Part shown: piece by piece, positions 52,784-54,356 of the stretch
Numbering within the stretch: the first letter of the stretch is position 1
How the letters are laid out: the number at the start of each line of letters is the position of its first letter
DNA from: Fistulifera solaris
Taxonomy: Eukaryota
Length of the DNA stretch: 64,000 nt
Reading direction: 5' to 3'
Assembly: GCA_030295235.1 (NCBI GenBank)
Contig: AP026172.1
Coordinates: 124,001 to 188,000, forward strand
Program-made: the position numbers and the translations under genes
The notes under the pieces: model-generated
What the model was told of the DNA's origin: nothing
Seen by the model: the letters and a program-made list of their open reading frames with translations, nothing else
Database searches by the model: none

Positions 52784-54356
52784 ATGTGGCGAGGTGTTTT
52801 CTCCATAATGTGGATGTTGTCACGTGCTTCAAAGGGACGTTCATTTCGAGGAGCTTTAAATATTGTTAGTACATCAAAGTCATGTACATGGATCCAGTCC
52901 TCTGCTTTATTATCAACCCATTTCAACTTTCGATGCATCGAATCATCAATACGCCGACCGTTGCCGCGCTGCTTCGTCGCGTCGAATGAGGATTCTGTAG
53001 AAACCTCGGTCGGTCACATGGCCAATTTGTACCAAGAATGGAGTCTCGAACAAGACCGGATGCTTTGGGAGTATCGCAACGAGCCCGTGAGTACCATTGC
53101 TGCTCGTCTGGGTAGAGGTCTTCGTGGTGTCGAAACGAGATTAGCCAAACTCAAAGATCCTTCTAGCAATGCGTACATGCGCTTGTTCAGTGATGATCTG
53201 GCGCTGTCGAATGAGAAAAACAATGGAAAGAAACCCAAATTTGTACCGGCGTCGGAAGTTTTACGTAGAATACGATGGGACGCGAGTTTGCCCAGCCAGG
53301 ACTTTTCCATACTCTATTACGATCGTGTCGAAGACGAAGTATTGGAAGCACCATTCGATGCCCCCAATACAAGTATTAAAGGAAAAGCAACGAACATAAT
53401 AGATGCCCTTCCGGAACACAGGATTAAAGGTATTAAATTCAAAGAGCAGATCGTATGGGATAGAGATCGCCGGTTAGATTTGGTGTTTTCGGCTCCAGGA
53501 ATTGCTCGCGTCATGGAGAGCTACGACGCTTGGAAGCAGGCACGTGACGCCGAGGAGGAAACGAATCGCAAACGACAAGCGGAAGTATCGTATCGACTAC
53601 AAAGTGCATTGGGTACAGAGCGGTTTACTGAGTTGAAAGAACTTTCGCGCGAAATTCAGACGACTGCTCAAAGAGAAGACAACATGCTGCTCATGCTGGA
53701 AGTTGAAAAATACGTGCAGGTAGCACTAACACTGTTTCGGCAGGCTCGGGAGAACCCTTCCAGTAGTCTAGCGCCGTCTTTGATTGCCATAAACGATTAT
53801 GAAGCACTGGATCAGCTTTCTGAAATTGTGGCGCTTTTACCTGATCCCCACTTGAAACCCGTCATTCTGACAGAAGTATTGCGAGCAATGAAGAAAGTAG
53901 AAGGCAAACCTGTGGAAAGTCAACCGAAGGATTTACCCGAAATCGATGAAGCCGATGTAGTTGAGACGTTTGTACGGGGATCAGGGCCTGGTGGGCAAAA
54001 GGTTAGTAATGATCGGCGTGTTACGTTTACATATCATTCTCGACCCACTCATTCCTCTCTGAATGCGCTATTGAAAGGTCAATAAAACCAGCAATCGCGT
54101 CTCCCTACTACATGTACCAACTGGACTGCGCGTAGAATGCCAAGACACGCGTTCATTGCAACAAAACCGGAAGATTGCTCGGAAGCGCTTGCGTTTAAAA
54201 CTAGACGAGTACTTGAATGGCAGTCAGAGCCGTACTAGCTTGGCCGCTCAAAAAGCTGCCGCCAAAAAGTTGAAATCCAAGGCAAGGAGTCGCTCGAGAC
54301 AAAAACAGAAACGTGAAGCAAACAACGATCCATCATCGGAGACAGTCGAAGATTGA
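52784..54356 (+). CDS. Organelle-targeted HTH + MJ1316 + GGQ peptidyl-tRNA hydrolase (C12orf65/ArfB-like) fusion protein
   Basis: SEVLRRIRWD...YYDRV...LPEHRIKGIKFKEQIVWDRDRRLD (MJ1316); [51 protein letters not shown] across intron 54002-54077; basic C-terminal tail. Confidence 0.85.

Follow-up and report, generated by a model that had tools for sequence, protein, structure and literature searches.

A two-exon gene of Fistulifera solaris encodes an MJ1316 domain and a GGQ release-factor domain in a single polypeptide, an architecture that, judged from homologous sequences, is conserved through the diatoms and Bolidophyceae. The gene was found in a 64,000-nucleotide window of contig AP026172.1, by which we mean the whole stretch of DNA analysed and to which all positions refer. 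Our preferred reading, to which we assign a probability of about 0.5, is that the product is a nuclear-encoded, organelle-targeted (most likely plastid-targeted), codon-independent peptidyl-tRNA hydrolase of the C12orf65/mtRF-R type, joined to an N-terminal unit that would supply RNA recognition. The MJ1316-release-factor fusion and its RNA-damage interpretation are not new, having been published in 2019 (Burroughs and Aravind, Int J Mol Sci 20:1981, PMC6514570, section 2.5 and the legend of Fig. 4C), and the value of the gene as a discovery is limited because both are already in print. What may be new is that the leader of the fusion gene looks chloroplast-directed.

The gene occupies positions 52784-54356 on the forward strand, as do all of the features described here. 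Exon 1 is an open frame of 406 amino acids at 52784-54001, ending in GSGPGGQK; this frame is open upstream from 52760, and its first ATG is at 52784. It is followed by a 76-nt phase 0 intron at 54002-54077 (GT at 54002, AG at 54076-54077), by exon 2 at 54078-54353 (92 amino acids, beginning VNKTSNRV) and by a TGA stop codon, read in the sequence at 54354-54356; left unspliced, the exon-1 frame would reach a stop at 54083-54085. The Pfam match to RF-1 (PF00472) is split exactly at the splice, with exon 1 reaching profile position 26 and exon 2 resuming at 27, and from Met79 onward the spliced product agrees in every residue with the 420-residue NCBI protein FisN_6Lh386 of F. solaris (P0003), so the original prediction of an uninterrupted exon followed by a clean intron holds. 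The NCBI model starts at this Met79 and omits the presequence. Residue numbers below are those of FisN_6Lh386 unless given as full-model numbers, which start at the ATG at 52784. Other diatom homologues align continuously through GPGGQK(I/V)NKTSN with no break, and two close relatives, P0004 and P0005, lose their similarity directly after GGQK, as would be expected if they too have an intron there. Contigs from three sequencing runs that cover the locus read through the intron without a joint, as DNA would, and favour neither splicing nor its absence. By these sequence comparisons, 52784-54356 is confirmed as a real two-exon diatom gene, with chance far exceeded.

The encoded domains run in the order presequence, Myb-like three-helix unit, MJ1316, helical bundle, GGQ domain and basic tail. 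A Pfam search of the spliced protein returned RF-1 and MJ1316, at 85.1 and 58.9 bits against cut-offs of 35 and 26.3, and nothing else, a codon-recognition or GTPase-interaction domain included. Both PF00472 and PF04457 are present in 106 of the best 120 homologues, the other 14 having MJ1316 alone; all of its named members are diatoms, and further searching found the fusion in Triparma retinervis as well. In two of the MJ1316-only homologues, P0004 and P0005, the end of the protein is a read-through of the same intron. A library-wide search gave one continuous match from residue 6 or earlier to residue 406 or later for 22 of the 150 listed representatives, and the fusion is present at full length in proteins derived from the transcriptomes of Amphora and Cylindrotheca. 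A search of the ESM Atlas returned no cluster other than that of the protein itself. The observation of a fusion is confirmed, and the homologues show a conserved architecture.

The MJ1316 domain, predicted at about 53243-53495, is placed by Pfam (PF04457) at 53246-53464, or full-model residues 155-227, with an E value of 8e-16 over profile positions 3-75 of 75. It is the best-conserved part of the N-terminal module: R84, R103, R135, W147 and D154 are invariant in all 55 sequences compared, sister architectures included, and H134 and P132 are nearly so. A sequence search of the PDB gave no match to this part of the protein, and a literature search for MJ1316 by name found no experimental study of the domain, RNA-end binding included; its role in recognizing RNA ends with a 2',3'-cyclic phosphate is a prediction from domain fusions, as set out in section 2.5 of PMC6514570. 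Elsewhere, the HTH-MJ1316 module is joined to a domain carrying the HAD motifs DLDGVLADF, LTG, SKDK and LIDD. This partner matches Pfam NT5C at E 1e-4, below the cut-off, and PDB entry 6g2n at E 0.0018, and its sequence hints weakly at a 5'(3')-deoxyribonucleotidase (NT5C)-like phosphatase. The HAD partner and the three arginines and one histidine of MJ1316 that are fixed in both architectures share a theme of RNA or phosphate ends, although the NT5C link is weak and the NT5C family is known for acting on nucleotides, not RNA ends. Separately, the GC-rich sequences P0205, P0212, P0222 and P0263 have the HTH-MJ1316-linker portion without a release factor; such an exon may lie further downstream, and they were left out of the fusion count.

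The exon-1 part of the RF-1/GGQ domain, at 53939-54001, covers Pfam profile positions 6-26 and has GGQ at 53990-53998; exon 2 supplies the rest at 54078-54332 (positions 27-109, E 2.9e-14), and on the spliced protein the match reaches E 4.3e-24. G323, G325, G326 and Q327 are invariant in all 38 aligned homologues. A profile of the family retrieves C12orf65 (7a5h_C) at E 5.1e-32, ahead of the best RF1/RF2 at 3.2e-16, ArfB at 1.3e-6 and ICT1 at 0.035, and a single-sequence search gives the same order with C12orf65 first. Among solved structures, human C12orf65/mtRF-R (7a5h_C) comes nearest, at a sequence E of 2.6e-23 and, by Foldseek, a TM score of 0.81, an rmsd of 2.7 A and 44% identity. In the AF2 model, strands 335-340 and 345-349 are joined by a short turn with no inserted helix, and the lack of a helix between the last two strands is described in PMC6514570 as a trait of C12orf65 as against ICT1 and ArfB class 1. 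Because of the order of the profile E values, the fold match to 7a5h_C and the missing helix, the sequence and model assign the GGQ domain to the C12orf65/mtRF-R type and not to the ArfB/ICT1 type, which keeps one half of the original C12orf65/ArfB label and discards the other. The predicted basic tail is present as well, a conserved K/R-rich helical segment at 54156-54323 (residues 355-410; AF2 helices 355-378 and 380-410) that lines up with the C-terminal tail of the human protein. In a tree of the GGQ domain (57 rows, 117 columns) the fused forms cluster (2 changes), and with 31 of its 54 inner branches unsupported a mitochondrial cannot be told from a bacterial origin.

Full-model residues 1-78 (52784-53017) form an N-terminal presequence, consisting of the short hydrophobic stretch VFSIMWML, then SRASKGRS followed directly by F, and then a Ser/Thr/Arg-rich, acid-poor segment. 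Together with Met79-Ala80 the presequence makes up the 80 residues that precede the conserved NLYxxW anchor, among which are 4 D/E, 10 K/R and 19 S/T, and the relatives P0005 and P0006 keep the presequence frame and its IMWMLS...GR(S/A)(F/L)RG motif, with short, in-frame indels only. Diatom plastid import follows the ASAFAP rule, which places Phe at +1 behind the signal peptide (PMC4329603), and the F. solaris leader has the corresponding hydrophobic start, 8 residues long with a mean hydropathy of 2.2, followed by a small residue and Phe at GRS-F. Of 104 non-redundant homologue leaders, 62 have [ASGC]F behind their most hydrophobic 8-mer, against a mean of 21.7 (sd 4.1, maximum 33, n = 500) in shuffled leaders, which are the only control; the motif is absent from the scored segment in the remaining 42. 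A hydrophobic segment of at least 2.0 occurs in 69 of the 104, compared with 41.4 in the shuffles. Because of this excess of small residue-Phe pairs and the ASAFAP rule, the leader resembles the bipartite plastid signal of diatoms more than a mitochondrial or unspecific presequence. The shortness of the F. solaris hydrophobic stretch and the 42 leaders that lack the motif count against a plastid signal. The organellar presequence that had been predicted is present, but its marks look plastid-like rather than generic.

The alternative that survives best, though we judge it clearly less than an even bet, is that the protein is the diatom orthologue of mitochondrial mtRF-R, in which the N-terminal unit would take the role of MTRES1 in cis, holding P-site tRNA or rRNA on the split subunit with no damage sensing. 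The nearest solved relative is human mtRF-R, taken from its complex with MTRES1; mtRF-R requires this RNA-binding partner on the split subunit (PMC8786322), C12orf65 is generally regarded as mitochondrial (PMC3472500), and the Seminavis homologue P0101 is labelled mitochondrial by its source. In keeping with an orthologue, a word-based and non-exhaustive search of shorter proteins (271 of 294 candidates at E<=0.001) found no standalone diatom C12orf65: six of the seven high-identity short matches inspected still contain the last part of the linker, which makes them fragments of the fusion, and fungal and bacterial proteins follow them in rank. Against a mitochondrial orthologue stand the leaders, whose hydrophobic start and small residue-Phe pair are a diatom plastid mark, and the occurrence of HTH-MJ1316 on a phosphatase-like domain that would have no place in tRNA holding. 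Moreover, MJ1316 is unrelated to MTRES1, which is S4-type.

The remainder of the N-terminal module bears on a second alternative. The Myb/HTH-like unit at 53030-53188 (residues 5-57, YQEWSLEQDRMLWEY...TIAARLGRGLRGVETRLAKLKDPSSNAYMRLF) is modelled by AF2 with helices at 10-18, 24-31, 35-46 and 51-66 in a block with pLDDT of 87-97, and Y5, W8, D13, L16, G32-R33-G34, R41, K44, L45, Y53 and F57 are invariant in 38 sequences. While the predicted HTH-like unit is present, the Myb label is weakly supported by sequence and model: Pfam gives no Myb match at E<1 for the F. solaris protein, a profile of the sister family reaches B-MYB at E 0.003 and MYB at 0.0043, and in VIA-align residues 2-58 match the DNA-binding domain of GcrA (Z 6.2 over 46 aligned residues, rmsd 1.7 A), the Tc3 HTH (Z 6.2) and R2R3-MYB 6kks (Z 5.5), all below the level that the tool calls meaningful. 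Between MJ1316 and the GGQ domain, the helical linker of the original prediction is found as a bundle at 53501-53902 (residues 162-295), with AF2 helices at 162-167, 169-198, 200-218, 222-245, 260-272 and 279-294 and a motif, LSE(L/I)VALLPD..LR, that is conserved in homologues. The N-terminal 300 residues are modelled at a pLDDT of 93.6 and a pTM of 0.83, and in this model the Myb-like unit, MJ1316 and the bundle form one rigid N-terminal unit, for which Foldseek found no match in the PDB at E<=0.001. The best VIA-align matches of the bundle (residues 180-298) are of the harmonin-homology type, at Z 6.6-7.6, under the tool's bar for helical folds; because such helical-bundle matches, at Z<=7.6, fill the list for the N-terminal 300 residues, MJ1316 is barely represented there.

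These structural neighbours lend something to the view that the N-terminal unit does not read RNA but binds DNA or docks onto proteins, and in this way positions or controls the hydrolase, perhaps at the nucleoid of the organelle or on a partner. GcrA, Tc3 transposase and R2R3-MYB (Z 5.5-6.2) would speak for DNA binding, as would the weak profile matches to MYB, and protein-interaction bundles (Z up to 7.6) for docking. However, every one of these scores lies under the tool's meaningful level, and the part of the module under strongest conservation is MJ1316, whose archaeal namesakes are small, stand-alone proteins; we consider the docking or DNA-binding view very unlikely. A gene-model artefact, in which adjacent MJ1316 and small release-factor genes were misread as one, is close to refuted by the sequences, since the intron retained in all contigs found for the F. 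solaris locus and the 14 homologues with MJ1316 alone are outweighed by an RF-1 match that has its positions 6-26, GGQ included, in exon 1 and resumes at 27 in exon 2, by the 106 homologues with both domains in one protein, by the fused transcriptome-derived proteins of two other diatoms, and by the intron read-through that ends P0004 and P0005.

If the protein is instead an organelle-targeted hydrolase with an RNA-recognizing N-terminal unit, as we prefer, it would be imported into an organelle, most likely the plastid. There its GGQ loop would reach into the peptidyl-transferase centre of a large subunit that has stalled and set the nascent chain free. By analogy with mtRF-R, the substrate would probably be a split subunit still carrying peptidyl-tRNA. 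The N-terminal unit would provide RNA recognition, which small free-standing enzymes either do without or owe to a partner, and the target that we favour is a cleaved RNA end (a 2',3'-cyclic phosphate or 3'-phosphate) on tRNA, mRNA or rRNA, so that rescue would be directed to ribosomes stalled by RNA damage. Targeting of cleaved RNA ends is the least secure step of this proposal and is put forward tentatively, with the odds leaning against it; a coupling of cleaved-RNA sensing to organellar peptidyl-tRNA release is inferred from the domain fusion. A more ambitious version, in which mtRF-R would have its first counterpart in plastids, clearing split 50S subunits with peptidyl-tRNA still bound, and in which the HTH-MJ1316-bundle unit is a portable reader of cleaved RNA ends also wired to an NT5C-like HAD phosphatase in ochrophytes, the two jointly forming an organellar RNA-damage response of peptide release and end trimming, is speculative and unlikely to hold in full.

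In humans C12orf65 is a disease gene, with a choice of substrate that is as yet only partly understood, and the natural fusion fixes both activities in one polypeptide, in algae that can be transformed. It offers a handle on the ligand of MJ1316 and on how a GGQ factor is aimed at one kind of stalled ribosome. A plastid location, if true, would add a release-factor arm to the quality control of plastid ribosomes.

Several known systems resemble the diatom protein in part. In the literature searched on C12orf65 in relation to plastids, diatoms and ArfB, the fusion came up in PMC6514570 only, and passages of PMC3472500 on C12orf65 do not mention one. The fusion of Burroughs and Aravind (2019) likewise has the two domains in one protein and couples release to organellar RNA damage or repair, but section 2.5 and the Fig. 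4C legend of that paper (PMC6514570) name no organism, Myb-like unit, helical bundle or target organelle, while its species list may already include diatoms. Compared with archaeal MJ1316 (UPF0248/DUF504, PF04457), the diatom domain spans nearly the full 75-position profile (3-75) and differs in its setting, with a Myb-like unit on one side and a helical bundle on the other. Bacterial PrfH (RFH), which occurs with the RtcB RNA ligase, is also a GGQ factor tied to RNA damage, a parallel with C12orf65-MJ1316 drawn in PMC6514570 as well, and PrfH structures on a 'damaged 70S ribosome' are among the weaker PDB matches of the diatom protein. PrfH differs in keeping a codon-recognition-like domain and in being linked to repair by operon, not fusion, and no counterpart of its ligase was seen with the diatom protein. 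ArfB (YaeJ) and mitochondrial ICT1/mL62 resemble the diatom protein as GGQ hydrolases that act independently of a codon and end in a basic tail, but their profile match is far weaker, and the inserted helix of ICT1 and ArfB class 1 is missing from the diatom model. The closest likeness is to human C12orf65/MTRFR (mtRF-R; 7A5H chain C) and its mouse counterpart 2RSM, which have the GGQ domain and basic C-terminal helix, lack a codon-recognition domain, and are 44-49% identical to the diatom protein over about 80-107 residues. Human mtRF-R is a mitochondrial, single-domain protein of 166 residues that works with a separate MTRES1 on the split 39S subunit, its substrate being split large subunits with peptidyl-tRNA and not 55S/70S ribosomes with an empty A site (PMC8786322), whereas the diatom protein carries some 300 additional N-terminal residues and a plastid-like leader.

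The gene spans positions 52784 to 54356 on the forward strand and comprises two exons, in agreement with the original prediction of a two-exon fusion down to its coordinates. The start codon (ATG) lies at 52784 within a frame that stays open between 52760 and 54085, and exon 1 ends, by translation, at 54001, where the next bases are GTTAGT; a 76-nt phase-0 GT..AG intron closes with its AG at 54076-54077, and exon 2 runs from 54078 to a TGA stop codon at 54354-54356. If the intron were retained, the exon-1 frame would terminate at 54083-54085. Since exon 1 ends at position 26 of the Pfam RF-1 profile (positions 6-26) and exon 2 begins at 27 (27-109), the two halves of the domain abut to the residue. 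From Met79 to the end, the spliced model is identical to P0003 ('hypothetical protein FisN_6Lh386 [Fistulifera solaris]', 420 aa), the public NCBI model from this raphid pennate diatom, in which Pfam recovers both predicted domains (RF-1, E 4.3e-24; MJ1316, E 8e-16) well above its cut-offs. Because P0003 starts at Met79 (53018), it lacks the 78-residue leader (52784-53017) that is in frame in the close relatives P0005 and P0006, and targeting predictions made from it would overlook this segment.

On the same strand, the gene is preceded by an open frame for an acyl-CoA dehydrogenase (51024-52172, the frame extending further; Pfam C-terminal domain E 1.2e-36, plus middle and N-terminal domains) and followed by one of 195 codons (54645-55229) in which Pfam detects no family at E<=0.01. 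F. solaris is allodiploid. A second contig differs at 6 in 130 bases at 53026-53155 and at 4 at 54176-54221, and the protein database holds proteins of 95% and 91% identity (P0004, P0007); together these suggest that the gene is present in a second version, allelic or homeologous.

Domain order was examined in an alignment of 38 full-length relatives and in two AlphaFold models, one of the whole protein (pLDDT 83.8, pTM 0.69) and one of the 300 residues that start at Met79 (pLDDT 93.6, pTM 0.83). Both bear out the arrangement first described, of presequence, HTH-like unit, MJ1316, helical linker and GGQ domain: a variable leader some 40-140 residues long is followed by a conserved three-helix unit with a fourth helix, NLYQEW(S/T)LEQD..LWE.R......LA..LGRGLRGVE.RL.KL.D..S.AY.RLF, then MJ1316, a bundle of long helices, and a C-terminal GGQ domain with a long basic helix. 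The three-helix unit, MJ1316 and the bundle are predicted to pack as one body, to judge by the high pTM of the N-terminal model. The folds nearest to the bundle are harmonin-homology domains, at Z<=7.6, scores that the tool itself rates as uninformative.

Leaders were compared among homologues P0001-P0190, excluding P0002, by requiring an initial Met and an NLYxxW anchor preceded by 35 or more residues (111 sequences), and removing 7 near-duplicates to leave 104, with 500 shuffles as control. A hydrophobic window of at least 2.0 occurs in 69 of the 104 (shuffles 41.4, sd 4.5, maximum 56). Counted from where the most hydrophobic 8-mer ends, a small residue directly followed by Phe falls between -3 and +16 in 62 of the 104, against a shuffle mean of 21.7 (sd 4.1, maximum 33); the other 42 leaders have no such motif in this range. 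Typical homologue leaders read LIAMLSLIRKSPTMVKA followed by FTHN and LLLLLIRTSSATA followed by FRVR, while the site in the F. solaris gene itself is VFSIMWMLSRASKGRS followed by FRGA. The ASAFAP motif is built around a Phe at +1 behind an ER-type signal peptide, a residue that PMC4329603 describes as crucial in diatom plastid import. From these motif counts, the leader appears plastid-type, and we place the probability that the protein is targeted to the plastid at roughly 0.6.

At the level of sequence, then, we show an intact GGQ hydrolase domain of the mtRF-R type joined to a conserved N-terminal unit behind a predicted organellar leader. The protein would be imported into an organelle, probably the plastid, where the GGQ motif would enter the peptidyl-transferase centre of a stalled, probably split, large subunit while the N-terminal unit recognised an RNA feature, preferably a cleaved RNA end; this last element, taken alone, is a tentative proposal. 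The main rival is a mitochondrial orthologue whose N-terminal unit has a plain MTRES1-like grip on tRNA or rRNA, a possibility that we regard as somewhat unlikely. Ranked after it, and improbable, is a role of the N-terminal unit in DNA binding or protein docking. The three-helix unit resembles HTH domains weakly (VIA-align: GcrA Z 6.2, Tc3 Z 6.2, R2R3-MYB Z 5.5), the sister-family profile matches B-MYB at E 0.003 over this Myb-like part, and Pfam gives no Myb match for it.

The preferred reading, in which the N-terminal unit recognises RNA, can be considered alongside other proteins that carry it. All 21 lower-ranked representatives chosen for matching the N-terminal part only have MJ1316 without RF-1, two of these RF-less forms being MMETSP transcripts. 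In several of the 21, from metagenomes and marine eukaryote transcriptomes (P0215, P0217, P0193, P0277 and P0224), the C-terminal domain bears four HAD motifs (DLDGVLADF, LTG, SKDK, LIDD) and weakly resembles 5'(3')-deoxyribonucleotidases (PDB 4mwo at E 0.046, PDB 6g2n by profile at E 0.0018, and Pfam NT5C at E 1e-4, short of the cut-off). In an MJ1316 comparison of 55 sequences that included both architectures, residues R84, R103, R135, W147 and D154 (P0003 numbering) are invariant throughout and H134 nearly so. Judged from these proteins, the HTH-MJ1316 module is portable between architectures, and a phosphatase partner would fit, on thin support, a module reading phosphorylated nucleic-acid ends. 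The GC-rich P0205, P0212, P0222 and P0263 combine a Myb-like unit with MJ1316 and with a linker that shares the ...LPDEH..LR.. motif of the fusion, in a called ORF without RF-1; an RF exon may lie downstream behind an unrecognised intron, which, if true, would extend the fusion past diatoms and Bolidophyceae. Fusions of C12orf65-like RF-1 with other domains were also seen, to CYTH in P0213 (387 aa, on 15 contigs) and to an Fpg/Nei glycosylase in P0267 (Rhizophagus clarus, labelled 'isoform X2'), although a merged gene model may account for either one.

The taxonomic survey confirmed the architecture: PF00472 and PF04457 occur in one protein in 106 of the 120 best homologues listed (of 186 at E<=0.001, with 8000 candidates scored), and MJ1316 alone in the remaining 14, P0004 and P0005 among them. 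Similarity of the latter two stops directly after GGQK and gives way to read-through, which fits the same intron read through. Full-length fusions are present in transcriptome-derived proteins of Amphora coffeaeformis and Cylindrotheca fusiformis. A search of every protein in a 1.84-billion-protein library gave 8393 matches at E<=0.001 (85 at 1e-30), with a single stretch from residue 6 or earlier to 406 or later in 22 of the 150 proteins listed. Named carriers among the matches listed are Fistulifera, Amphora, Seminavis, Mayamaea and Cylindrotheca, with fragments from Skeletonema and Proboscia; beyond the diatoms, Triparma retinervis (Bolidophyceae) has the fusion. In the ESM Atlas the protein falls in a single 52-member cluster, wholly eukaryotic and most commonly Bacillariophyta. 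Against these data, an artefact joining two genes has hardly any chance of explaining the fusion.

The fusion is already known as a computational observation, since Burroughs and Aravind 2019 (PMC6514570) described it and put forward the RNA-damage interpretation. The suggested coupling of release to RNA damage agrees with a published hypothesis and is a correct reading as far as inference allows, but is not original; a full-text literature search on MJ1316 found no bench test of the fusion. Two modest leads are new, the leader that looks plastid-type and the sister architecture with a phosphatase-like domain.

The release factor had been assigned as 'C12orf65/ArfB', of which the first half stands and the second does not. 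Its best solved relatives by sequence are human C12orf65/mtRF-R (7a5h_C, E 2.6e-23) and mouse C12orf65 (2rsm), with ArfB and ICT1 absent from solved-structure matches at E<=0.01; the family profile favors C12orf65 (5.1e-32) over RF1/RF2 (about 1e-16 to 1e-10), ArfB (1.3e-6) and ICT1 (0.035); and Foldseek aligns 7a5h_C at TM 0.81 (rmsd 2.7 A, 44% identity). Unlike ICT1 and ArfB class 1, which have a helix between the last two strands (a criterion from PMC6514570), the diatom AlphaFold model has none, and the type is narrowed to C12orf65. This bears on mechanism: according to a review (PMC8786322), neither 70S nor 55S ribosomes supported release by mtRF-R, which was found together with MTRES1 on split 39S subunits bearing peptidyl-tRNA.
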